A stretch of 64,000 bases of DNA from Pyrinomonadaceae bacterium (GCA_036004125.1 DASYRR010000170.1:15611-79610); one strand, 5' to 3'; positions 1,927 through 41,007 are shown, counted from the stretch's first letter. Notes: generated by a model not told the origin, from the letters alone. Made by a program: numbers and translations.

Positions 1927-1990
1927 AGCTAACACTTCGCTGCAGCGGACGGTCCGCTGCGCGGCCCGCCGCTGAGCTCAAACGTTGGGC
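1927..1990 (+). repeat. attC-like site (divergent type)
   Basis: AGCTAAC...GTTGGGC cores. The arms AACACTTCGCTGCAGCGG and CCGCTGAGCTCAAACGTT form an imperfect inverted repeat with one extra G in the left arm. Confidence 0.5.
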
Positions 1991-2006: not shown

Positions 2007-2468
2007 ATGAAGCTAGCCACGTTCATACTGATGTCCTTGCTAATCGGCTCGGCATTCGTCGGTGCTTCTAGCGGGCAGAAGCCTGATCCATTTGCGAACG
2101 TGCCCGCGTCTCAGCGGGATCGACTGAAATCGCGTTTGACCGAATTCGTCGACTATCATCGAACAAAGCAGTGGGAGAGAGTCTATGATTTGCTCGCTGA
2201 ACGGAGCAAACAGGCTGTAGAAGGAGGCTTACCCAAGGATCTTTTCCTTAAAAAGAAACTCTACTCTGAGGCGAAGAAATTCACCCCAACATCTATCCAG
2301 AAAATGGATGATGACTGGTGGATGATTTGGGGTTGTGCGACTTATCAACGCGGCGGCGCCATGGAATCTGCATTGGAAGCCTATTTCCAGGATGGTAATT
2401 GGTTCTTCTCGGATATATGGAGTTCGCCTCCCTGTATTGATTGCACACCTCGCAGTTGTAAGCATTAA
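2007..2468 (+). CDS. secreted hypothetical protein (cassette-borne)
   Basis: Internal ATG of ORF 1761..2468 with signal peptide MKLATFILMSLLIGSAFVGASSG. It starts 17 nt after the preceding GTT core. Confidence 0.6.
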   Translation: MKLATFILMSLLIGSAFVGASSGQKPDPFANVPASQRDRLKSRLTEFVDYHRTKQWERVYDLLAERSKQAVEGGLPKDLFLKKKLYSEAKKFTPTSIQKMDDDWWMIWGCATYQRGGAMESALEAYFQDGNWFFSDIWSSPPCIDCTPRSCKH

Positions 2469-2480
2469 TGTATGGCGAAC

Positions 2481-2566
2481 GCCCAACGTATTAAGAATTA
2501 GTGTGGCGCGCTGTGCGAATGAGAGTACTGAGAGAAGAGGAAGCCGCCACACAATTCTGTGTTGAA
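2481..2566 (+). repeat. attC-like site (type 2)
   Basis: GCCCAAC (RYYYAAC) ... GTTGAAC (GTTRRRY). The arms AGAATT-A-GTGTGGCG and CGCCACACAATTCT pair with one extrahelical A in the left arm. Confidence 0.55.
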
Positions 2567-2694
2567 CTAAGCCGGTTTAGAGACTACTTGGAGTTTGCGT
2601 AGTCAACTTGAGGAGAGGAGAAGTGCGTGAAGCTTGGCGGTCTGGAAGAGAATGAGTGAGGAGGCGAGGGAAGTCGCAGCTGAAGGAGAGGAAG

Positions 2695-2719
2695 CCAGCC
2701 ACAGAGGCTGGTTTTTTTG
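2695..2719 (+). terminator. hairpin plus T7 run (intrinsic-terminator-like, or IS91 end-associated hairpin)
   Basis: CCAGCC-ACAGAG-GGCTGG followed by TTTTTTT, about 130 bp inside the IS end. Confidence 0.35.
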
Positions 2720-2812
2720 CGTTCACAGACAGAGTTCGGCAGTGACGGCGAGAGCAGTTTGCCGCCGAGGCGGGCAGGATCGAGGAAAGAGCCTTAGGCA
2801 GCGGCCAGAGTT

Positions 2813-3890
2813 TCATGGGGCACGACCTCTGGGAGGGAGTGGCGCGAGCAGCGTGAGTGGCCCGCCGCAGTGCGGACAAGTTAGCACCGTCAGCGGCTCG
2901 GAGGTTTTTACAGCAGCTGACTTTAGTTTGCTGGTGGTGAGAGAGAGCAGTTGTCTGGCCTTCTGTAGCAGTTGCCGATGGGCCGGGCTGAGCAGGCCGT
3001 AATAACGGACCTTGATGAACCTATTTGGGGAGCACGTGTTGGAGGAAGCGACGAATGAACTCTTCGGCAGTGATGGTGCAAGGCTGGAGTTGGTCAGTGG
3101 CCGACTCTTTGTAAGTGAAAGTGACCGTGCCCTGCGCCAATGAACGGAGGCGGTGGTTACTGAGAGCGACGCGAAAGATGTAAGGGGCGAGATATTTGAA
3201 GGCTTGCTCGCCGGAGCCCACCGCTTCGGTATGCACCACCCAGTCTTTCTGCCAGACTCGGGCCTCGACCAGGGCAAACAGTCCAGTCTTTTTCAGCTGA
3301 TCACGAAACTTGGCACGGAAGATCCTGGAGAGTGCTTTGACGGGCACGAGAAAGTCTTTCCGGGCAGCACGCCAGCGGCCGTCAGCAGTCAGGCCACCAC
3401 CGGTGACGAGGTAATGAACGTGGGGATGATAGAGCAACTGTCTGGTCCAGGTGTGAAGTACGCCGACCATACCGAGGCGAGCACCGACGAAGCGCGGGTC
3501 CTGGGCCAGTTGCAGTAAGGCCGCGGCAGAGGCACGAAAGAGCAGGTTGTAGATCGTCTTCTGCTGGCTGCGGGCCAGGGCGCGCAACTCGGCGGGCAGG
3601 GTGAAGGTGACGAGGAAGTGAGGAGTGGCCAGCAGCAGCTGCTTTTGCTGCTGGAGCCATTCATGGGCCTGCTCGTTCTGGCACTTGGGGCAGTGGCGGT
3701 TCTTGCAGGAGTGATAGCTGTAACGTTGTTCGTCGCAGTGGGCGCAATAATAGAGTTGGCCGCCGCGGGTGGCGGTGCGACAGGTTTCGATGTCCTGCAT
3801 GGTCCGCAGATGTGAGGGCAGCATCCGGTCGTTGAACTTGGCTCGATACGCAGGCCCATGCAGCCCAAAGATCTCGGCCACTTCCAGCAT
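2813..3890 (-). pseudogene. IS91-family HUH/Y2 rolling-circle transposase, interrupted by a 1-nt frameshift near 3022
   Basis: Zn-binding N-terminus (CAHCDEQRYSYHSCKNRHCPKC), HUH-type HPHVHYLV, and a YLAPY tyrosine pair. The main ORF stops at ...FLQHVLPK*. The expected continuation FIKVRYYGLLS...CPHCGG is in ORF 2813..3277, one frame over. Confidence 0.85.
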
Positions 3891-3897
3891 CAGCGGC

Positions 3898-4764
3898 TCA
3901 GAGATCGCTCATGAGCTGGTTGATGGCCGCGGCACCGAGTTGTTCGGCTTTCGCGGTCAGGTGCGTATAGACGCTGGTGGTGGCCGGCGAAGAATGCCCG
4001 AGCCACTCCTGAATCAGCCGCAGGTTAACGCCAGCTTCCAACAGATGCGTGGCCCAGGAGTGGCGCAGCGTGTGCACCGAAGCGCGTTTGTGGTTGCCGC
4101 TCTCTTTCAACGCCACGTGGAAAGCGTCCTGCACGCTGCTCTTGGACATCGGCTCGGTAGCGCGCGCCAAGTCGATATGGTTACGGCCTGCTGCGGGAAA
4201 CAGCAGTACCGGATTGTGATGCTCTTTCCAATACTGGCGCAGCAACTGCAGGGTTCGTTCCGGCAGCGGGACATAACGGTCTTTGGCGCCCTTGCCGTGG
4301 CGCACGTGAATCATCAGGCGCGCGCTGTCAATGTCGGCGACTTGCAGATGGGTACCTTCCTGGAGCCGCAAGCCGCAGGAGTAGATGGTGCTGAGACAAA
4401 CCTCGTAGCGCGGCAGTCTTACGCGCTCGAGAATCTGGCGCACTTCCGCACGGCTGAGGATGACCGGCAGTTTCTTTTCCGGCGCTGGACGCACCAGGTT
4501 GAAGATGGTCCATTCTTTTTCCAGCGTGCGCTCGAAGAAGAACTTGATGCCACAGATGGCGATGGTCGCAGTGTTGCGTGAGTAATGCTTGACGTTCTTG
4601 AGATAAAGGAAGTACTGACGCAGCTCTTCTTCGCTGATCAAGTCCGGTGACTTGTGATAGTGTTCCGCCAGTTGGCGCACGGCCCGCACGTAATTCTCTT
4701 GCGTGCGTTCGGCCAAGCCTCTAAGCTGGAGACACTCGATCATTCTCTGACGCAGTTCAGTCAT
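3898..4764 (-). CDS. tyrosine site-specific recombinase (IS91-associated type, not IntI)
   Basis: SAM-like N-terminal domain. Catalytic signature is R (GLRLQE), HTLRHSWAT, LLGHSSPATTSVYTH. The stop lies 7 nt before the transposase start. The IntI-specific insertion between box I and HxLRH is absent. Confidence 0.9.
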   Translation of the reverse strand: MTELRQRMIECLQLRGLAERTQENYVRAVRQLAEHYHKSPDLISEEELRQYFLYLKNVKHYSRNTATIAICGIKFFFERTLEKEWTIFNLVRPAPEKKLPVILSRAEVRQILERVRLPRYEVCLSTIYSCGLRLQEGTHLQVADIDSARLMIHVRHGKGAKDRYVPLPERTLQLLRQYWKEHHNPVLLFPAAGRNHIDLARATEPMSKSSVQDAFHVALKESGNHKRASVHTLRHSWATHLLEAGVNLRLIQEWLGHSSPATTSVYTHLTAKAEQLGAAAINQLMSDL

Positions 4765-4880
4765 GGTTACACCTCCCGATAGAAATTGAATCTTTCATCA
4801 GGAAGTGTAGAGCAGGCAGTCTTGCGATTGAGGATGATCGGGTTACTACCAGGGTTGCTCTCGGCTGCGCGCAGCGCTTA

Positions 4881-4966
4881 GTTCAACAAGCGCTTGCAGC
4901 GGACTCGCCGGTGAGTAGCCTTTATTCGTAGTTGCGTGGGCGAGTCGCTCAAGCGCAGCGTTATGC
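4881..4966 (+). repeat. attC-like site, main family
   Basis: GTTCAAC-AAGCGCTTGCAGCGGACTCGCC-loop-GGCGAGTCGCTCAAGCGCAGC-GTTATGC. Confidence 0.7.
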
Positions 4967-5897: not shown

Positions 5898-5909
5898 GGT
5901 TCAGATTCA

Positions 5910-5998
5910 GTTCAACAAGCGCTTGGAGCGGACTCGCCTGTAAGCGGCCTTTATTCGTAGTTGCGTGGGCGAGCCGCTCAAGCGCATCAGCGTTGGCC
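5910..5998 (+). repeat. attC-like site, main family
   Basis: GTTCAAC-AAGCGCTTGGAGCGGACTCGCC...GGCGAGCCGCTCAAGCGCATCAGC-GTTGGCC. Confidence 0.7.
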
Positions 5999-6030: not shown

Positions 6031-6504
6031 ATGAAACTTCAAATCGATACTGAAGACGCTGATCTTTTCGATGGTTTTGGAAATGGTTCTCTCCATCTTT
6101 ATCTGGTTCAAGATCCTAGAAACTGGCGTGGTGAAGACCGGTACGACGCTTTCTATTTGTAGTTGGATTTCCATTTTAGAGATTGGGAGGCTCTCTTTAT
6201 TGGGATCTTAAAGGTTCCAGATTGCGACCGCTATGTTGAAGGTGATGACATCAATGAACTTCATGAACGTAATCGGAAGAAGTTCGACAAGTCGATCCCC
6301 GATTGTCCAATGCTCTCACGACTATTTGATATGTATGAAGATTATGAATTCAGCCCGGAGGAGCTCCCGAAGCTCCGAGAAGAATGTGAAATGTTGAAAT
6401 CTAGGGCCACAAATGCTGAAGGGCTTAAGGCTCTGCGCAAGTTAATCCTGGCCGCTGATGAAGGCTCTCAGCGAGGATTCCACTTAATGTTCGTATGTGA
6501 CTAG
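6031..6504 (+). pseudogene. acidic cytosolic hypothetical protein, single in-frame TAG at 6160..6162 (cassette)
   Basis: ORFs 5965..6162 and 6163..6504 share one frame and are separated only by TAG (...RYDAFYL*LDFHFRDWE...). ATG at 6031 lies 33 nt after the GTT core. Confidence 0.55.
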
Positions 6505-6509
6505 GCCGG

Positions 6510-6566
6510 ATCCAACAAGCGCCTGGAGCGGACTCGCCATGAGCGGGCCTCTTTGCTAAGTTGCGT
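6510..6566 (+). repeat. truncated attC-like site (left arm and loop only)
   Basis: ATCCAAC-AAGCGCCTGGAGCGGACTCGCC-ATGAGCGGGCCTCTTTGCTAAGTTGCGT. The family right arm and GTT core are then missing. Confidence 0.55.
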
Positions 6567-6686
6567 TGCAGAAATCGCGGAGGCAGGACAACTAACGATC
6601 AATGCAGGCCATCCTAACCGCAATGCCTGCCGCTCGCCGACTTATTGAGAAAATTGTTTCTTACGACTTAGATGGAGGAAAGTCAG

Positions 6687-7164: not shown

Positions 7165-7251
7165 AATCCTATAAGCGCTTGGAGCGGACTCGCCGGTGAG
7201 TAGCCTTTATTCGTAGTAGCGTGGGCGAGCCGCTCAAGCGCACGGTTCGGC
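7165..7251 (+). repeat. attC-like site, main family (degenerate R'')
   Basis: ...CCTATAAGCGCTTGGAGCGGACTCGCC...GGCGAGCCGCTCAAGCGCACG-GTTCGGC. Confidence 0.6.
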
Positions 7252-7833: not shown

Positions 7834-7907
7834 GCCGAACAAGCGCTTGGAGCGGCCTCGCCATGAGCGGGCTTCTTCGTTGAGTTGCGTGGGCGAGCCG
7901 CTCAAGC
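7834..7907 (+). repeat. attC-like site, main family, right end disrupted
   Basis: GCCGAAC-AAGCGCTTGGAGCGGCCTCGCC...GGGCGAGCCGCTCAAGC, then unrelated sequence instead of GC(A)GCGTT. Confidence 0.6.
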
Positions 7908-7959
7908 ACATCTATAAAGCGAGTCAAGTGAAAAAAGAGAATAGTTCTCCCAGGGGTGC

Positions 7960-8332
7960 CGCATGGTTTTGTTTTTCTACCTCACCGCACCCAGTAGTGT
8001 GTTTCAATACAACTACCTGACCTACGCGCTTGGCCGGACAAGCCGACAGCCCACTGCCGCATTACTCCGTCTCTGCTTTCTGACCGCGACGGAGAAACTC
8101 GACATAATCAATCTCTGCTCGGCCCATGATGAAACATCTGATTAGCAGCTCCAACAACAGGTCGGCGTCGCGCTGATCGTTCTTCTGCCGACGTCGCGCC
8201 AACCTCCGGATCTCAGCTGTATCACCCACCAGTAGTTAGTGCCCCAACTGTTCCAGCAGTTCCTCGAACCAGTTTGTCTAACCACAGGGGTTGTTGTCGC
8301 GCGTGAATGTCTACTCCGATATATAATGTCAT
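7960..8332 (-). pseudogene. IS110-family (DEDD) transposase, N-terminal remnant with stops and frameshifts
   Basis: Minus-strand reads give MTLYIGVDIHARQQ..., then in other frames FEELLEQLGH* and LVGDTAEIRRLARRRQKNDQRDADLLLELL. This is the classic IS110 N-domain. The C-terminal two thirds are absent. Confidence 0.7.
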
Positions 8333-9890: not shown

Positions 9891-9976
9891 GCCGAACAAG
9901 CGCTTTGTGCGGACTCGCCATGAGCGGGCTTCTTTGTTAAGTTGCATGGGCGAGCCGCTCAAGCGCAGCGTTATAT
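9891..9976 (+). repeat. attC-like site, main family
   Basis: GCCGAAC-AAGCGCTTTGTGCGGACTCGCC...GGCGAGCCGCTCAAGCGCAGC-GTTATAT. Confidence 0.7.
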
Positions 9977-10224: not shown

Positions 10225-10436
10225 GATACGCAGTTATTGTCGAAGAAGGTGAAAGCAGTTTTGGCGCACATGTGCCAGATTTGCCTGGATGCGTTGCAGT
10301 TGCAGATTCAAAATCAGAAGTGTTGAAGCTAATTCAGGAAGCCATCGAATTTCATTTGGAGGGATTGCGGCAAGATGGCCAACCTATTCCTCCAGCGTCT
10401 TCAAGCATCGAGTATGTAGACGTACGCGCCGCATAA
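10221..10436 (+). CDS. hicB: HicB-family antitoxin
   Basis: MRYAVIVEEGESSFGAHVPDLPGCVAVADSKSEVLKLIQEAIEFHLEGL is the typical HicB N-domain. Confidence 0.8.
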   Translation: MRYAVIVEEGESSFGAHVPDLPGCVAVADSKSEVLKLIQEAIEFHLEGLRQDGQPIPPASSSIEYVDVRAA

Positions 10437-10518
10437 AATGAGCGCTTGGAGCGGACTCGCCATGAGCGGGCTTCTTTGTTAAGTTGCGTGCGCGAGCCGC
10501 TGAAGCGCAGCGTTATGC
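10434..10518 (+). repeat. attC-like site, main family (degenerate R'')
   Basis: AAAATGAGCGCTTGGAGCGGACTCGCC...GCGAGCCGCTGAAGCGCAGC-GTTATGC. Confidence 0.65.
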
Positions 10519-11606: not shown

Positions 11607-11760
11607 CTGGTTAAAAGGGCCTTCAGTCAATTACCACCAGTCACGGCTTTTACGATTAGTTACTAATTTTCAACAGGTTGCAGCCGCTTCGGATTACAAC
11701 TGTTATCAACCATTTGCGTCCTAGTTCCGGGTAATCACGTCACAAATTTGCCACAACAAA
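11607..11760 (+). repeat. copy A of the tRNA-Lys att core (CTGGTTAAAAG) plus about 145-bp element arm
   Basis: Aligns with 33541..33692, roughly three quarters identical by eye. Shared blocks are CCAGTCACGGCT, CAGGTTGCAGCCGCTTCGGA and CACAAATTTG. Confidence 0.7.
11739..11757 (+). promoter_or_regulatory. GTCACAAATTTGCCACAAC motif copy 1 (possible arm-type recombinase or Xis site)
   Basis: One of four same-strand copies of GCCACAA-ATTT-GCCACAA. Confidence 0.4.
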
Positions 11761-33361: not shown

Positions 33362-33510
33362 CGAGATGAATTGGTCGCGGCGAGTGCAGCATGACGGGTC
33401 AAACGTTGTGACGCTGAGAGTTACATAGAGGTGAACCCTCACGCACGTTTCAAGTGGTTCGAGCTTGTTTTCTTATGCGACGGAGTTAAGTTATTGATAG
33501 GATGGGTTAT

Positions 33511-33551
33511 GAGCCGAGCAGGACTCGAACCTGCGACCCACTGGTTAAAAG
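33511..33551 (-). repeat. 41-bp perfect direct repeat of the tRNA-Lys 3' half (distal att site)
   Basis: GAGCCGAGCAGGACTCGAACCTGCGACCCACTGGTTAAAAG is identical to 40936..40976. Confidence 0.9.
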
Positions 33552-33692
33552 AGCGGTAAGCGCGATTCCATCCAGTCACGGCTCTTACGATCTATTAACA
33601 TTTTACACAGGTTGCAGCCGCTTCGGAGTACATCTAGTAACAACCGTTCTCCCCTGTTTGCCGGTATTCACGCCACAAATTTGTCACAGGAG
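33541..33692 (+). repeat. copy B of att core plus element arm (homologue of 11607..11760)
   Basis: See copy A. Contains motif copy 3. Confidence 0.7.
33672..33690 (+). promoter_or_regulatory. GCCACAAATTTGTCACAGG motif copy 3
   Basis: Lies 131 bp from the att core, the same offset as copy 1 in arm A. Confidence 0.4.
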
Positions 33693-34092: not shown

Positions 34093-37000
34093 TCATAATT
34101 TCCTACCAGTCCAGAATCCGCGATGCAGCTTAATTGCTTTCTTTGTTAACCCCCAGTGCCAGTGGAGAATCTTGCGTGGACCGAGACTCTTTATATTGTG
34201 CCAATCTAGAGCAAAACGTCGTACTCCAAACCTGTACACATTGATCCCCCCACCTCCGGCATTCGGATAACGCAAGAATCGTATTCCCCAGCCACCTGCC
34301 TTCGCTACTTCCGCACCCGTAACGACATCCCAAACAACACCCGCTGCTTCGCCTCCAGTGTAAAACCAAGACGCTTCTCGCTCAGCATTATCTTGATCCC
34401 ATAACCTCCCTGCGGACTCTCCACCAAGCAGCTTCGCCAACCCTCTCGAAGCATATTTTGAGCCTCCAAATGTTATCCACCCCGAAAACCCTACAACGCT
34501 GGTAAGGGCTTTATCAGTACCAATACTGAGACTTCGACCCAACCTCTCCCAGATCGAATAACCCGCATAAATTGTGATGTCACAAGCACCGGGCGGACAC
34601 GGGCCGGTCAAGCCAGGGACATCACCCGGGCGGTAGGTACCGTCTTGACCCTGCAAACTGAAGCCCAGGCCGCCAGATCGACCGAATGCCCTAATCGCGC
34701 CATAGACATTCCATGCAGTTAATCCGAGACCCGCAATTAGGCCAACTGGGCCAGGCACAAATTGAGCTATGAGGCCCAGGGAGCCCACGGCTATTCCGGT
34801 GATCGCTGCCACCTCAACCGCTAAAGCAGCCGCAGTCGCTCCCGCGACCCCGGTAGCAGACAGAGCCCCTGCAAGAGCGGGGAGCATTACGAGGCTCACT
34901 ATGCCGACGACAATGAGCGCTACCGACACAGCGATTCCAATCCACTTGAATACCTTCTTCAAGAAGCTAAAGAAGCCGAGTCCACTCGGATCGGTGTTGT
35001 TGACTGGATCATTCGTGCAGTAAGCATAGAGATTGAGCGTTTGAGGATCCTCAAGATTTGTCGCATTGATGCCTGCAGGATCAACTTGGGTAAACCTTCC
35101 TTGCTGCGAGTCGTAATGGCGATTGACGGCGTAATCGAGAGTTGTGGTTAAGGATCGATCATAAGAAGTGAATCGTCGGTTGGTTGGTGTTCCCACACCT
35201 TCCGCAGCCAGTACAGTGCCAAAGGGCAAGTTAACTTGTTCGGACCAATTGCCGGTTGAAGGATTCGTCTCTATGCGTGTTCCTAATCGATCTGGGTGAT
35301 GATATTCGACGGCTTCGCCCCCAGTGCCATTCGGCGTCAACGTAGAAAGCAGACGGTTTCCGAGATGAACGTAACTCTTCGACCATGCGGGATTGACGGA
35401 CCCTCCGATCTCAATGTATTCCGCGATGACGGAGAAGCCTTCCGCGATGTAGTAAGTTCGGGTATTCGATTCTTCAGTGATTAATCTCTGATTGTCGTCC
35501 CCGTACGTGTAGCTGGCAACCACCGTTTGATTGTCATCTTTCACCCTGACCAGCCGATTGGCCGCGTCGTACTGAAAACGCTGCCACTGAGGGCTGCTTC
35601 CCGGAACGAAGGTGCGCGTCTGATTGCCCGTTGCGTCGTAATTCCACCCGTCGTTGGCTATGCGGTTCGTCGCTTGGTTGTACGCAATGCCTTGCAAGCC
35701 ATCGCGCGGAATCGTCACGCCCACAGGAGGTGCGTACGGGCTTATGCCTGCAACCTTCGTGTAGAACTCTGGCGCCCAGGCGAAGCCGTTGCGCACCTCA
35801 GCACGGCTCGTCCCATTGTTCAGTGTCGCTTCCCAGGAAGCCCAGCCGCCCGAGTCCGGATCACGATAGAGATAAGCCTTGTATAGGTCGTAAACATAAT
35901 CATGGTTGTTGCGATTTCGAGTGGCGTATTCCTGCGAGCTGAACAGGCTCTCACCCAGATTCTGCATTCCGGAGAGAAATTGCGACTGCCCCTGCGCGTA
36001 GGCTGATTGTAGCGTTGATAACCACGAACTCAGCTCGCTACTGGTAGGCTGGCGGTTCAATGCACCCTGATAGAAGTTCTTAATGTAGTCTTCAAGAATG
36101 AAGGAATAGACATTACGATTGCCAAAGCGATCGTATTCATACCGCTGTGCCCAGATGACGTTCTGCCCTCCAGTGGCTCGAATCAAGCGATCGAGCGCAT
36201 CGTATTCAAAGCCACGGTTTTTTGTGTTATCGAGATTATTGACGATCTTCGTCAGCTGGCCCGTGCGCTTGCCGTTCACGCCTGCGTAATCGTAAGAGAG
36301 ATTCAAAAGCGTCGAGCCGTTGCGCGACACGGTTTGGTTTTCAAGCAGTCCCGTCTGGAAATTGTAACCGTAAGATTCGTTGACTTGGTTCGTGCCAGTT
36401 CCGACGCTGAGCGAAGTCGTCTGGCTGCCAGCGTTGTAAACAATATTTGACGCTTGCGTTTGGCCGTCGAAGGTGAGCCCGCTCAAACGACTTGCAATGT
36501 CGTAACTGTGCTCGACAAACTTGCGGGGAGCGGCGCCATTGCCATATTCCGCTGGGTAAAGCACTCGCCAAACTCGATCAAGCGAGTCGTAATTGTAGTC
36601 CGTGTCAAATGCGAAACCCGGCCGGCTAGTTAGTGTCAATGTCTTCGAATTGATCCGACCTTCTGTATCGAAACCATAACTTTCGGTCGAAACGCCTGCG
36701 GTCGCGACGCTCGCCAGTTGCGTCACATCCAAGAGCTGCGCGCTGTAAGATTTGGTGCGGTAGCCGTAGGTGATCGTGGCCGCAGGTAGAATCGGATTGC
36801 TGGTGTCACCAAAGCCACTCGTGTCCCAGGAAACCGATTGCAAACGATTCAACGGATCGTTATTGTAACTGAAAACAGTCTTCACGCCACGCGCGTCAGT
36901 TCGCGAAATGAGATTCGATCGCTCGTCGTAAGTGAACACATCGCTCCAAGTGCCTGAGCCCACATACGCTCCCGCATCGTTAAGCGTGGGATTCATCTCA

Positions 37001-40000
37001 GCCAACTTCTGCGCGGTCCGTCTTCCCAGTGAATCGTACTTAAACGAGCGCGTTTGCTGGACTTGGTTGCCCGACATTGAATTGATGGTGATCAGGTTAC
37101 CAAGTGTGTTGTAGGCATAGGTCGTTGCCATTCCCGCGCTGACGGAGCCATTGCCCCAAAAGATGGGCTCAACAACTTCGACCAAACGACCGCTAGCATC
37201 GGTGCGTCCCCAACGCTCGCGGCCCCAGGCGTCCTGCACGCGCGTAGTCTCACCTGGTGCAGTGCTGGCCACGTCCGGCCGATTTGGTTCGTTGTAGAAG
37301 CTCTGTGTCAAACTGCCATCAGGTGCTGTCACCGTGGCTGTACGTCCCAGAGCATCATAGGTCGTTATGGTCCACTGTAGAGTATCGCCATTGCGATAAG
37401 GCCGCGTTTGTTGCGTAGCTTGTCCTATGTTGTTGTAAATCGTATCCACGAAATCCCAAACTCCGTTCACCCCTAAAGCCTTTTCCTGACGTACCTGCCC
37501 GCGCCCATTGAGGTACTTCACATTCTGATCGGCAATTGTTGTGTGTGTTGGGTGCACCTCAAGATAGGTTGTCTGGGTTACTGTCAGCGACGAATCATTG
37601 TATTCGTAATCCGTGTGCGCGCCGGTTGGCGAGATGGACCTAATTACACGCAGTGAATTTGGGTCATAGACGGTTTCGGACGTCCGGTTATTGGCATCCG
37701 ACACATATTTTCCCAAGCCAGTATTGAAATCGTAACTCGCGCTAGTGGTCACCTGCGCGTAGGGATCGGTCGCCGAGCCGTGCGTTTTCGACTGCGGGTA
37801 TGCATAATTCGTATCGGTGCTGTAACTAAACGTAGTTTGTTCGCAACAGGAGGTCGAGGCTTTCACCAGATTGCCGGTGACATCGTAGCGCCGGGTTTCG
37901 GCCACTGCACCGGTGAGGTTAAGAGCATCGGCGTAAGTCGTCACCTGGGTGACGTTGCCGCGATAGTCGGTCGAAGCGTCGTAAGGGCAGACCCAGATCT
38001 GGTTGCAGTAACCGTCACAACCACCTTCCCCCCAGGGACAGCCACCAGTACAGTCCGGATCGTTCCAGTCCACATCCCAATAGCAGTAGCCTTCCTCTTC
38101 CGCGTGCGGATTAGCAGCCTGATCGTGCATCACAACGCCGGGGGCGGCCGTGAGCAACTGCCCGTCGTACTGGAATTCCGTGCGCGAAACTCGCGTCACA
38201 TTGTCAGCGGCATAAATTTCAACTGTCAAAGGCAGATTCAAGATGTGACGGCCATAGCAGCCCGTGCTGTAACACGTTCCCGTGTAATTTGCACTGTTTT
38301 GATAAGTCGTCCGAGTTGAGCGGAGGAGTGTTATTCCGCCGTAATCATAATCGCGAAGCTCCGTGACCTGGTTGTAAACGGGACCATAACTGAACTCAGC
38401 CGCAGTTTTTTGGCCGCGTTCATCAAATTTTTCGACGCGCGTCGGACGCGGAGAATTGTAGGCGCCCTGCTCCCAGCTTGACGTGCTCTTCTGAAGCGGA
38501 TTTGCCTCGTCTGTCGTGAAGGTTCTATCTTCATAGATCAAACCGTCATTCCATTGGCCCGGTGCGTTGTAGGAGTATTGCTTACTCTTCGTGAGGTTTG
38601 GCAACGTTATTATAGTGGTGCGTGGATTATCATTGTCATGGACCTCATAACCAGTCACAGCTTGGATCAAGGTGGCCCCTCCGTCCGGTGTCCAGCGCTC
38701 CGTCATCGTCGTGTAAGTAGGAGCATCCGTGAGGTTGTAATCCGGTGTGAGGGGGTAGTTGTATTCTTCTTTTCGCGTGACCGATCCCTGATAGATCGTA
38801 CCCATGTCGGTGAGCGGCGCGCCGGAAAAAGACATCCCGCGTTGTTCGATTACTTTCGCGAGCATGCCGTAGCTGGAATATGAATCGGAGTCGTTGAGCC
38901 AGTAGCCAGTGCCCGTCCCTGGATAGTAGATGCCATCAACAACCCAGGGCGCAGGATTCGGCACTACCGTGCTTTGAATCTGTGGATATGAGAATCCGTA
39001 GTTCAACCCAAGCTGGTGATAGTGCAGACGCACTAACTCGCGCGTCCCGCCGCTCAAGCCAGGTGCGGTCATGGCCGTCAACAGATTGTTGTAGTCGTAA
39101 TGAAAGTTGATGACGCGGCCTAACGTATCCGTAACCGTTTGAATCAGCGGTCCGGAGTTGTTGACGTAGGTGATAGTAATGTAGTTGCCATTAGCGTCTT
39201 CGATGAACGTTGGGAAGACCCCACCACCTAGCTGGGAATATGCGCCATAGTTGATGAGGGTGCCGTTGGGTAACTTTGCTTGCGCCGAAGTGATTACTCC
39301 GTTCGTGCCGGTCCAATATGTGTAATCAATAAACGACCCGTCGGTCGTATGCATCACGCCGTAGGTGCCCCAATTGTAAATGGTGATGTTGCCCGTGTAG
39401 CTGTGTCGGGTTCCGTCGGCATCGACGAGCATGCAACCCGTGTAAACACCTATACCCAGCAGCTTTCCGAAACCCAAATTGAAGCCCGGCGCCGGCCAGC
39501 CGCGATCGTTGTCATAGCTCATTTGCGTGTTCGCCTTGGTCCAGATGCGGGAGTTGTAAGCGAGCCCGAGCGAAATGTTGATGCCGCGACCGGGCGCGCT
39601 ATAGATTGGCGCTGCAAACTGGAAATTGCCGCTGCCTGCGCCGCCATCCGTGTTCGCGCCTGGAGGATCGCCGACGCGATTCTCGGGATCGTCAGCCGAC
39701 CAATAATTGCTGCTGTCCCAACCGCCACCAACCCAGTACGGCATTGGATTCGGGTCAATTATAGTTGGCGCTTCCGAGGCGTGCGACCGCTTAGCTAATT
39801 CGGCTGCCATCGGACGTCTACTCCTCTTCGCTGGTCCTTTTTCAGTGGTTTTCTGTTGCTTGTTAGATGCAACCTTGACTATAGGAACGTCGCGCGACGA
39901 TACGGCTCGCGTGCCCGTCGGCGTCAGATCTAGATTGGGACGAACGCCAGGGCGTACTGTCGCCGTGGTTTGCGCGGACCGCCCAGCGGCCTCACCTCTT

Positions 40001-40089
40001 ATCGTGAATATACCGGGCCGACAGGACGGAATTCTCCGTGCCGCGAGATAGGAGCCCGCTGAGTTGGCGTTGAGGACTCGGCCGTCCAT
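34093..40089 (-). CDS. Rhs/YD-repeat polymorphic toxin, main ORF
   Basis: Dozens of YD-type repeats. RHS core end is YDSQQGRFTQVDP...NLYAYCTNDPVNNTDPSGL, followed by a 294-aa C-terminal region (34096..34977). Confidence 0.9.
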   Translation of the reverse strand: MDGRVLNANSAGSYLAARRIPSCRPGIFTIRGEAAGRSAQTTATVRPGVRPNLDLTPTGTRAVSSRDVPIVKVASNKQQKTTEKGPAKRSRRPMAAELAKRSHASEAPTIIDPNPMPYWVGGGWDSSNYWSADDPENRVGDPPGANTDGGAGSGNFQFAAPIYSAPGRGINISLGLAYNSRIWTKANTQMSYDNDRGWPAPGFNLGFGKLLGIGVYTGCMLVDADGTRHSYTGNITIYNWGTYGVMHTTDGSFIDYTYWTGTNGVITSAQAKLPNGTLINYGAYSQLGGGVFPTFIEDANGNYITITYVNNSGPLIQTVTDTLGRVINFHYDYNNLLTAMTAPGLSGGTRELVRLHYHQLGLNYGFSYPQIQSTVVPNPAPWVVDGIYYPGTGTGYWLNDSDSYSSYGMLAKVIEQRGMSFSGAPLTDMGTIYQGSVTRKEEYNYPLTPDYNLTDAPTYTTMTERWTPDGGATLIQAVTGYEVHDNDNPRTTIITLPNLTKSKQYSYNAPGQWNDGLIYEDRTFTTDEANPLQKSTSSWEQGAYNSPRPTRVEKFDERGQKTAAEFSYGPVYNQVTELRDYDYGGITLLRSTRTTYQNSANYTGTCYSTGCYGRHILNLPLTVEIYAADNVTRVSRTEFQYDGQLLTAAPGVVMHDQAANPHAEEEGYCYWDVDWNDPDCTGGCPWGEGGCDGYCNQIWVCPYDASTDYRGNVTQVTTYADALNLTGAVAETRRYDVTGNLVKASTSCCEQTTFSYSTDTNYAYPQSKTHGSATDPYAQVTTSASYDFNTGLGKYVSDANNRTSETVYDPNSLRVIRSISPTGAHTDYEYNDSSLTVTQTTYLEVHPTHTTIADQNVKYLNGRGQVRQEKALGVNGVWDFVDTIYNNIGQATQQTRPYRNGDTLQWTITTYDALGRTATVTAPDGSLTQSFYNEPNRPDVASTAPGETTRVQDAWGRERWGRTDASGRLVEVVEPIFWGNGSVSAGMATTYAYNTLGNLITINSMSGNQVQQTRSFKYDSLGRRTAQKLAEMNPTLNDAGAYVGSGTWSDVFTYDERSNLISRTDARGVKTVFSYNNDPLNRLQSVSWDTSGFGDTSNPILPAATITYGYRTKSYSAQLLDVTQLASVATAGVSTESYGFDTEGRINSKTLTLTSRPGFAFDTDYNYDSLDRVWRVLYPAEYGNGAAPRKFVEHSYDIASRLSGLTFDGQTQASNIVYNAGSQTTSLSVGTGTNQVNESYGYNFQTGLLENQTVSRNGSTLLNLSYDYAGVNGKRTGQLTKIVNNLDNTKNRGFEYDALDRLIRATGGQNVIWAQRYEYDRFGNRNVYSFILEDYIKNFYQGALNRQPTSSELSSWLSTLQSAYAQGQSQFLSGMQNLGESLFSSQEYATRNRNNHDYVYDLYKAYLYRDPDSGGWASWEATLNNGTSRAEVRNGFAWAPEFYTKVAGISPYAPPVGVTIPRDGLQGIAYNQATNRIANDGWNYDATGNQTRTFVPGSSPQWQRFQYDAANRLVRVKDDNQTVVASYTYGDDNQRLITEESNTRTYYIAEGFSVIAEYIEIGGSVNPAWSKSYVHLGNRLLSTLTPNGTGGEAVEYHHPDRLGTRIETNPSTGNWSEQVNLPFGTVLAAEGVGTPTNRRFTSYDRSLTTTLDYAVNRHYDSQQGRFTQVDPAGINATNLEDPQTLNLYAYCTNDPVNNTDPSGLGFFSFLKKVFKWIGIAVSVALIVVGIVSLVMLPALAGALSATGVAGATAAALAVEVAAITGIAVGSLGLIAQFVPGPVGLIAGLGLTAWNVYGAIRAFGRSGGLGFSLQGQDGTYRPGDVPGLTGPCPPGACDITIYAGYSIWERLGRSLSIGTDKALTSVVGFSGWITFGGSKYASRGLAKLLGGESAGRLWDQDNAEREASWFYTGGEAAGVVWDVVTGAEVAKAGGWGIRFLRYPNAGGGGINVYRFGVRRFALDWHNIKSLGPRKILHWHWGLTKKAIKLHRGFWTGRKL

Positions 40090-40931: not shown

Positions 40932-41007
<76 letters not shown>

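Follow-up and report, generated by a model that had tools for sequence, protein, structure and literature searches.

How does a mobile element come to lie inside an array of integron gene cassettes, seemingly wedged between two of their recombination sites (attC), and which of its enzymes brought it there? The question is raised by a stretch of 64,000 nucleotides from a Pyrinomonadaceae bacterium (GCA_036004125.1, DASYRR010000170.1:15611-79610; below, "the window" is this whole stretch), in which an insertion sequence (IS) of the IS91 family, encoding an HUH/Y2 transposase (TnpA) and a tyrosine recombinase that resembles the integron integrase IntI, interrupts a cassette array. By comparison with its relatives the element is a 2.4-kb member of the IS91 family that carries the recombinase gene upstream of tnpA and an attC-like hairpin at the tnpA end. 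A first-pass annotation of the window had delimited a 2314-bp unit (2567..4880) and placed it exactly between two attC core sites. These limits were wrong: the unit comprises about 2400 bp (~2487-4886), the supposed left attC is the hairpin of the element, and the insertion took place inside the R'' core of one single attC. This anatomy, taken together with the target preference described below, we regard as very probable.

The extent of the element is best seen in its other copies. A scan of species-representative genomes gave 80 loci, 10 of them in one deltaproteobacterial contig of a metagenome-assembled genome (MAG), and a scan of metagenome contigs with a terminal-arm pattern added 120 loci. 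The 10 copies in the MAG contig (CAVYEB010000002.1, 5.3 Mb) are 99.8-99.96% identical over 2450-2461 nt, and their flanks are unrelated to each other, of non-attC type and located in a region without arrays. With a caret marking the junction here and below, the block common to them starts (A/T)^TTGAACTAAGCC and ends ...GCTGAGTTCAA-ACC-GAATTTGTGTAGCGGC-loop-GCGCCACACAAATTC-TTAACTCTTT^, that is, ...CTTT. Since these copies diverge only beyond the hairpin, the homologue of 2481-2567 lies inside the mobile unit. Their flanks share the crossover TT alone, without any target-site duplication. In four independent loci (L002, L003, L005 and L006; 82-84% DNA identity) alignment with the window likewise runs through the whole palindrome 2481-2567, with stems kept, loop variable and divergence from GTT^RRRY onward; on its opposite side, L006 has a different attC, and similarity ends at ...TTG^TTGAAC. 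The hairpin follows tnpA in 36 of the 39 full-length copies with identifiable inner arm, and no clean hairpin-less copy was found among these 39. Terminal arm, recombinase, tnpA, inverted arm, hairpin and NTT make up a layout shared by copies in Acidobacteriota, Chloroflexota, Bacillota (Clostridium estertheticum plasmids, Heliomicrobium), Desulfobacterota and Proteobacteria. No other non-coding motif of the family is as well conserved as the terminal 11-bp arm, which is present with at most one mismatch in loci of Acidobacteriota, Chloroflexota, Desulfobacterota, Bacillota and others. The limits can be slid by up to 2 nt, AA being present at both junctions.

The hairpin has the formal outline of an attC, GCCCAAC...GTTGAAC over 87 nt, within the accepted bounds (57-141 nt, RYYYAAC/GTTRRRY). 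It is, however, always tied to the recombinase-tnpA pair, including at the 10 non-attC sites, and it departs from the profile of the array attCs, which have two extrahelical bases on the '' arm, in having one bulged T and a 2/6-nt loop. A covariance model (R1), built on 30 attC sites that flank such elements, assigned it 7.1 bits, the weak match being on the other strand; seven resident sites of the window scored 37.6-65.9 bits and a degenerate one (6514-6589) 11.4 bits. This score rules out membership of the local attC family. When 20 diverse hairpins were aligned, 93% of cells paired (vs 37-47% with slid partner columns) and double-sided changes were present in 6 of 18 pairs, values reached by 0 of 500 shuffles. 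As judged from these alignments, the left "attC" (2481-2567) is the terminal hairpin of the element itself. Strand polarity of the hairpin was dropped as an argument, the bulged T and the asymmetric spacer pointing in opposite ways. Two copies show irregular hairpin ends: one (L016, ~6270-6310) has a 20-nt tandem duplication (ACACTAATTCTTAATACGTT twice), which may be a scar of aberrant cleavage-joining at GTT, and Herpetosiphon aurantiacus pHAU01 (L210) has a second, partial hairpin copy directly after the hairpin end (TTAAGATATT), downstream of tnpA.

The target of the element is a recurrent one. All loci taken together gave 114 unique left junctions for which 100 nt or more of flank was available; G precedes TTGAAC in 96 of them and 78 end in TTG, with TSCAASSANTTG^TTGAAC as consensus. 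When scored for an AAC...GTT palindrome against 1236 control GTT positions, 64 of the 96 flanks with GTT came out above the control 95th percentile; in folds constrained to form the AAC-GTT pair, the flanks have a median energy of -18.7 kcal/mol, compared with -8.5 kcal/mol for 400 GTT positions drawn at random from the same loci (Mann-Whitney p=1e-15). The flanking sites come from many sequence families and show strong covariation: 93 double-change cells were counted where 37 would be expected, a result equalled by none of 500 shuffles. Of 40 well-folded flanks, 30 have single-base bulges on the arm proximal to the element and 5 on the distal one. Read from fold and covariation, these flanks are bottom strands of attC sites, with the element always at the R'' end. 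Insertion thus recurs at one position and in one orientation, antisense to the cassettes, in attC sites of unrelated sequence from soil bacteria.

On the hairpin side, the base after TAATAC in 76 unique right junctions is G (64), T (11) or A (1), followed by TT in 76/76 and then by RRRY-like bases; the subset retrieved by protein has the same invariant TT and variable preceding base. The tetranucleotide beside the hairpin end (gene-sense) is therefore G or T, TT and any base, while real IS91 copies read GAAC or CAAG there, and the NTT target appears related in kind to the tetranucleotide of IS91 but a different motif. The first-pass annotation had taken the array to be dense in IS91 target tetranucleotides and, in one of its two readings, IS91-type elements to prefer attC cores. 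The density itself was found (AACAAGCGC 5 times in the window vs 1.06 expected, with 1/100 shuffles reaching 5; GCTCAAGCGC exact in 4/7 right arms), but all attC-flanked junctions lie at the AAC of R'' and none at CAAG, CTTG or GAAC in attC arms, so that tetranucleotide density is not the driver of site choice. What stands is that a recombinase-carrying lineage recurs at R'', antisense; other copies mostly have the flank G^TTGAAC of an attC R'', their ends differ from those assumed, and some copies occupy non-attC, T-rich sites.

Hairpins are not a general rule for targets: this was ruled out by the 10 deltaproteobacterial sites, which fold no better than shuffles (z ~-2 to +1). Chloroflexota and some other copies also occupy plain T-rich sites that fold no better than shuffles, and one Clostridium copy is found in the loop of a terminator-like palindrome (z -3.4). 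The copies in Clostridium estertheticum plasmids (L207-L209), which keep the arm TTGAACTAAAC and a long hairpin end, are located in or beside terminator-like palindromes (AAAACGACGTGA...TCACGTCGTTTT), in either orientation.

In the window, attC sites were located by direct-repeat and palindrome searches and then by the covariance model. They occupy the + strand at 1927-1990, 4881-4966, 5910-5998, 6510-6589 (degenerate), 7166-7251, 7834-7915, 9891-9976 and 10433-10518, and as each of them follows an open reading frame (ORF) of the + strand, this is the cassette (top) strand. The coordinates of the element and its surroundings are given in Table 1. The cassette with the interrupted site begins at TTGGGC (1985). 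The R1 match at 4885-4966 (65.9 bits) is the highest in the window, and the interrupted attC has two single-base bulges on the bottom-strand 3' arm. Removal of 2487-4886 joins GCCCAA to C-AAGCGCTTGCAGCGG... and yields an attC of 86 bp, with the same spacing from R'' to AAGCGC as the sites at 5910, 7834 and 9891; the rejoined R'' GCCCAAC (2481-2487) is the exact complement of G+TTGGGC, the start of its cassette. Because the rejoined site is normal and its R'' complements the cassette start, we conclude that the element split one attC at the R'' core, antisense to the cassettes. The empty site would read ...GGCGAACGCCCAAC^AAGCGCTTGCAG....

Table 1. Features of the element and of the attC that it interrupts (window coordinates)
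Feature	Position	Strand	Basis or remarks
Resident attC of preceding cassette	1927..1990	+	R''=AGCTAAC, R'=GTTGGGC; R1 match 1931-1990, 52.3 bits
ORF of cassette with interrupted attC	2007..2468	+	ORF list, start-codon scan
GCCCAA, 5' part of R'' of interrupted attC (target DNA)	2481..2486	+	Spacing after rejoining; similarity of relatives ends here
Mobile unit, recombinase-carrying IS91-family element	2487..4886	-	2400 bp; block common to 10 MAG copies, boundaries agree in L002-L016 and in circle/tandem junctions
Terminal attC-like hairpin of element	2487..2567	-	Gene-sense strand: GTTCAAC-AC-AGAATTGTGTGGCGGC-loop-GCGCCACAC(T)AATTCT-TAATAC-G
Inner 11-bp inverted repeat TTGAACTAAGC (GCTTAGTTCAA gene-sense)	2562..2572	+	Pairs with opposite element end in circle form
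Second subterminal palindrome GACTAC...GTAGTC	2582..2604	.	tnpA-distal (oriIS-type) side
IS91-family HUH/Y2 transposase gene tnpA	2813..3890	-	Pfam PF14319+PF04986 (Zn_Tnp_IS91, Y2_Tnp); frameshifted here
Tyrosine recombinase, integron-like subgroup, 288 aa	3898..4764	-	PF13495+PF00589 (Phage_int_SAM_4, Phage_integrase)
Subterminal palindrome GCTGCGCGCAGC	4864..4875	.	Recombinase-proximal (terIS-type) side; kept in relatives
Terminal 11-bp arm GCTTAGTTCAA (TTGAACTAAGC gene-sense)	4876..4886	+	Adjoins recombinase gene
Rest of interrupted main-family attC	4887..4966	+	C of R'', L'', loop, L', R'=GTTATGC

The cassette ORF upstream of the element had nothing on record in an exact-protein look-up. 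No intI and no second recombinase homologue turned up when the 64-kb window was searched by tblastn with the recombinase, the best other match having E=1.9; the array may extend beyond the window. In one related locus carrying the same element (L005), intI lies one cassette away and divergent from the array (323.7 bits with TIGR02249, cutoff 265), and a second (L002) has an N-terminal intI fragment near the array (238.5 bits). Because intI adjoins the array in L005, the arrays that hold the element are, on this gene content, real integrons. Both intI genes (L005 4666-5445, L002 9511-10278) look truncated, with 243 and 183 of 315 profile positions matched, and L005 comes from an assembly with many frameshifts. 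The suggestion that the enzymes of the element replace a missing IntI, put forward as a more speculative reading in the first-pass annotation, may or may not hold; in these two relatives the same element and intI are found by one array. Evidently, the enzymes of the element recognise the attC R'' for their own insertion; that they would also move cassettes is speculative.

Several resident features of the array deserve a record. The sites 6514-6589 (11.4 bits, right arm lost) and 7166-7251 (R'' degenerate, CCTAT instead of ..AAC) are decayed attCs. The R'' of attC 5910-5998 (window 5900-5916) is GTTCAAC, identical to the heptamer at the arm end of the element and present also in L008; it could be a natural core variant or else the trace of a previous visit. 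Within the cassette array, the - strand carries the degraded N-terminus of an IS110-type transposase (MTLYIGVDIHARQQ...; 8140-8332), and one copy of the recombinase-carrying IS91 element (L148) is inserted in a similar IS110-type gene.

Three contigs join the hairpin end of the element to its arm end, ...AATTCTTAATACG^TTGAACTAAGCGC, with a single GTT, in the form hairpin-TAATACG^TTGAACTAAGC. The first (L116, 2586 nt) has a 120-nt terminal direct repeat and a unit length of 2466, and is circular or tandem; the second (L144) contains a head-to-tail junction in mid-contig; in the third (L189) two different copies stand head to tail (~613 and 3056, - strand) behind one attC. Repeated insertion at one attC, regenerating the target, would lead to such tandems. 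As single-stranded DNA, the junction predicted for the window folds with -22.6 kcal/mol (z=-6.7), its complementary strand equally well. The predicted fold consists of a perfect 12-bp stem, in which GCTTAGTTCAAC is paired with GTTGAACTAAGC (arm and inner arm), followed by a 2/6-nt internal loop, a 6-bp stem, a bulged T and an 8-10-bp stem, and the folded junction is thereby predicted to be an attC-like hairpin with R-box, spacer and L-box. The inner arm ends in a base that covaries with N in the hairpin-end NTT (C-G, T-A, A-T). This N is constant in the 10 near-identical copies, while the N at the other end varies, so that the crossover is placed within N^T^T^ (AA of AAC on the antisense strand). 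Three positions are compatible with this, and one of them, AA^C, is both the edge of the 11-bp arm and the point at which IntI cleaves attC (G^TT).

The genes had been correctly recognised at the outset: the recombinase on the minus strand, followed 7 nt downstream by the start of an HUH/Y2 transposase of the IS91 type (3890), is confirmed by Pfam and by NCBIfam NF033538 (IS91 family transposase), with which the repaired 358-aa TnpA scores 395.8 bits (cutoff 125). Right-end motifs were likewise in place (GCTGCGCGCAGC at 4864-4875, GCTTA at 4876-4880, GTTCAAC at 4881-4887), and those of the left end are all present, although their coordinates had been given one too low (GTTGAAC 2561-2567, TAAGC 2568-2572, GACTAC 2582-2587, GTAGTC 2599-2604). 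Subterminal palindromes thus stand at both ends, GCTGCGCGCAGC upstream of tnpA and GACTAC/GTAGTC plus the 87-bp hairpin downstream. In the window, the tnpA ORF stops at 3021 and resumes in another frame to 2813 (289-aa and 154-aa frames), the break being one extra A at 3026 (AAA vs AA in L001). The latter, a 2363-nt Logan contig of the same locus and flanks, has an intact 358-aa tnpA; since this contig differs by one base and its gene is intact, the frameshift is either a homopolymer error or a private mutation. A programmed frameshift at CCC-AAA-TAG was ruled out by the uninterrupted 358-aa gene in L001 and in relatives.

Of all NCBIfam families, TIGR02249 (integron integrase) matches the recombinase best (184.9 bits), but below its cutoff of 265, and the best solved structure is that of VchIntIA (2a3v, E=8e-35), aligned in two stretches that skip about 35 IntI residues. 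In the skipped part, residues 175-239 of IntI correspond to 173-203 of the recombinase, and the IntI-specific insert is absent. By sequence, the recombinase therefore comes closest to IntI, in NCBIfam as well as among solved structures, while it stands below the family cutoff and is without the insert between the catalytic patches that marks an IntI. Smyshlyaev et al. (10.1101/542381) placed recombinases of IS91 and IS3 elements in an integron-like subgroup without the IntI insert. Relatives are abundant: 7994 of 8000 scored candidates matched at E<=1e-30, many of them on 1-3-kb contigs, as expected of a repeat, and some bear the PGAP name "site-specific tyrosine recombinase/integron integrase". 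An exact-protein look-up of the recombinase returned just the 2363-nt Logan contig of the same locus, and no independent copy.

Members of the IS91 family carry terIS upstream and oriIS downstream of tnpA, terIS having one palindrome that adjoins the cleavage site and oriIS of IS91 and IS801 having two; they insert at CTTG or GTTC, with T constant at position 2, without target duplication, and their active intermediate is a single-stranded circle of the bottom strand (PMC13181058). The window element agrees with canonical IS91, IS801 and IS1294 in its HUH/Y2 transposase with N-terminal zinc domain, in unlike ends with one subterminal palindrome upstream and two downstream of tnpA, in the missing target duplication, in a short T-containing target at the tnpA-distal end and in head-to-tail (circle or tandem) junctions; GTTC near the upstream end is shared with canonical IS91. 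It differs from the latter in the additional recombinase gene, in a tnpA-distal inverted arm that is internal and followed by a covarying hairpin of ~75 nt moving with the element, and in the target, which is NTT (G^TT) and usually belongs to an attC R'', rather than GTTC/CTTG. On E. coli plasmids, three copies of IS91 extend (gene-sense) from TCGAGTAGG... to ...CCTATCGAT, followed by GAAC or CAAG, and in their predicted circle junction the short repeats CCTATCGAT^TCGAGTAGG abut directly, with no stem spanning a hairpin.

A pair of integrase and IS91 transposase also occurs in Herpetosiphon, Clostridium estertheticum, Roseobacter, Novosphingobium and many MAGs, and this recombinase-carrying subgroup, to which ISShvi3 and others in ISfinder presumably belong, shares with the integron-like subgroup of Smyshlyaev et al. 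a recombinase that groups with IntI but lacks its insert. The report on ISShvi3 merely notes an adjacent attC (PMC9229058), which is probably the same hairpin picked up by an attC finder. The pairing of recombinase and tnpA, the kinship of the recombinase with IntI and the existence of other attC-specific invaders are already known; for the hairpin end, the folded junction and the R'' targeting of this IS91 subgroup, no description was found in the literature searched. To the IntI/attC system the element is linked by a folded imperfect palindrome with RYYYAAC/GTTRRRY cores, unpaired spacer, L stem and bulged base, by the G^TT (AA^C) crossover, by a presumed circular intermediate and by a recombinase of the same subgroup. 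It departs from that system in a recombinase without the IntI insert, in a hairpin with one bulge, 2/6-nt loop and 12-bp R stem, in crossing over at the resident R'' rather than R' and antisense to the array, in the use of unstructured TT sites as well, and in encoding an HUH transposase. IS1111-attC elements and group IIC-attC introns invade attC near its 5' end, antisense to the cassettes (PMC3001079), that is, in the same position and orientation as the present element, but they employ unrelated enzymes (a DEDD transposase with guide RNA and a reverse transcriptase with ribozyme) and possess neither an attC-like site of their own nor an IntI-like recombinase.

We propose that the best explanation overall is a recombinase-carrying IS91 element of hybrid mobility, combining HUH transposase and IntI-like recombinase, and give it a probability of roughly one half. 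The HUH transposase would supply a single-stranded circular copy, as in IS91; the circle junction would fold as a single strand into an attC-like site; and the IntI-like recombinase would carry out strand exchange of the folded junction with an NTT site, the R'' of a folded attC being preferred. While the limits of the unit, the head-to-tail junction, the preference and orientation of targets, the crossover window and the conserved structure can be read from the compared sequences, the assignment of these steps to the two enzymes is tentative, somewhat short of an even chance. The hybrid model is favoured on three grounds: at the crossover, a perfect duplex arm ends beside an unpaired spacer; in different phyla, the recombinase gene is conserved along with the 11-bp inverted arms; and the recombinase and tnpA genes are tightly coupled.

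A number of observations speak against this model. The recombinase is without the IntI insert that reads extrahelical bases, and with the local attC model the hairpin reaches just 7.1 bits. In the deltaproteobacterium, the 10 targets are simple A/T-rich sites, W^TTTWY, with no hairpin, so that a folded target is not required. The head-to-tail contigs could be tandem copies instead of circles, and a search for the empty site (GCATTAATGTATGGCGAACGCCCAAC) in JGI metagenome contigs gave no match. Some of the junctions were collected by means of a pattern that itself contains TTGAAC; the protein-retrieved set agrees with them. Finally, all sequence features also fit an HUH transposase that makes both cleavages alone, and like IS91, IS801 and IS1294, the element has GTTC after a terIS-type palindrome, a pair of oriIS-type palindromes and a short target containing T.

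Such rolling-circle transposition by the transposase alone we consider a serious, though somewhat doubtful, alternative. In this case, the Y2 transposase would nick the antisense strand by oriIS (hairpin and GACTAC palindrome) and again after the terIS palindrome and GTTC(AA), and the resulting single-stranded circle would be inserted beside the short motif YAA/NTT, which the attC R'' happens to present in single-stranded or extruded form; the recombinase would be accessory, acting in multimer resolution, regulation or stabilisation. The TnpA is a clear IS91 equivalog, and the TnpA of IS91 alone inserts bottom-strand circles. To this are added the terIS palindrome with GTTC and the two oriIS palindromes, in the layout of IS801 and IS91, the lack of target duplication, the short target with invariant T's, like CTTG/GTTC with its constant T at position 2, the unstructured non-attC targets in the deltaproteobacterium, the missing IntI insert, and a conserved single-stranded TTAATAC beside the junction that resembles a sequence-specific nick site. 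The end of a perfect 12-bp duplex, however, where the crossover lies, is a poor HUH substrate and the usual place for a tyrosine recombinase to cut, and the nick deduced here for the antisense strand (AA^C) falls one base before the position expected of IS91 (GTTC^). Neither the conservation of the 11-bp inverted arms across phyla along with the recombinase gene, nor the retention of that gene, tightly coupled or overlapping, by all close TnpA relatives examined, is readily accounted for by the transposase alone, and canonical IS91 has no hairpin outside its terminal repeat.

The hybrid model can be carried one step further. Recombinase-carrying IS91 elements might be self-mobilising "cassettes", in which an HUH-made single-stranded circle with attC-like folded junction is recombined by the IntI-like enzyme with R'' at AA^C; this reaction would then be the mirror image of integron recombination, on the strand that IntI leaves unused. 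In this full form we hold the idea to be unlikely.

Far less probable is an ordinary integron cassette that carries an IS, has 2481-2567 as its attC and was moved by the IntI of the host. Formally, the gene-sense layout is that of a cassette, TTGAAC...genes...R''=GTTCAAC...hairpin...G^TT, with an R'' that perfectly complements G+TTGAAC; the Shewanella study regarded ISShvi3 beside an attC as "a new gene cassette structure" (PMC9229058), and intI is found near the array in L005 and L002. Yet the unit is inverted with respect to every other cassette and joined at R'' instead of R', the site of IntI; 10 copies reside at non-attC sites in a genome region without arrays; the unit has its own recombinase and transposase; and its hairpin goes unrecognised by the local attC model. 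Orientation, junction position and multi-copy evidence thus contradict the cassette, as they do the delimitation of a 2.3-kb IS. The latter (2568-4880, with TAAGC/GCTTA ends, between two adjacent attCs and placed by the GTTC rule) does resemble canonical IS91 in its terminal inverted repeats, GTTG by the tnpA-distal end and its own end GTTC, but is hardly credible, as the hairpin is present in 36/39 full-length copies with none cleanly without it, the flanks of 10 near-identical copies diverge only past the hairpin, and excision of 2568-4880 leaves two abutted attCs with no cassette between them, whereas that of 2487-4886 restores an attC of 86 bp.

Elsewhere in the window, 42 nt from the 3' part of a tRNA-Lys gene (40932-41007) occur as an exact direct repeat at 33510-33551 and 40935-40976, bracketing 7.4 kb. 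The only large ORF of this segment (34093-40089, - strand, 1998 aa) has DUF4214 and RHS repeats, and no integrase was seen there; the segment looks like an island, or island remnant, at tRNA-Lys. A further 85-nt repeat joins 11630-11714 and 33565-33648.

As the hairpin of the element resembles attC and its recombinase resembles IntI, miscounts are possible in surveys, in the form of extra attCs, "new cassettes" and integron integrases without arrays; one permafrost study reports a complete integron to be missing from 97% of contigs that carry an "integron-type" recombinase, a share to which this lineage may or may not contribute. The element represents a third, unrelated class of mobile elements that home to the 5' end of attC, antisense to the cassettes, and such insertions cut a cassette off from the site at which it recombines and can alter the make-up of arrays. 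Recombinases that the published classification groups with IntI adjoin a structured, attC-like site with a GTT crossover, and the long-open origin of the IntI/attC system thereby becomes open to experiment. Were the idea of self-mobilising "cassettes" true, these elements would be a sister system or the source of the IntI/attC machinery, and through them the origin of attC could be approached in concrete terms.

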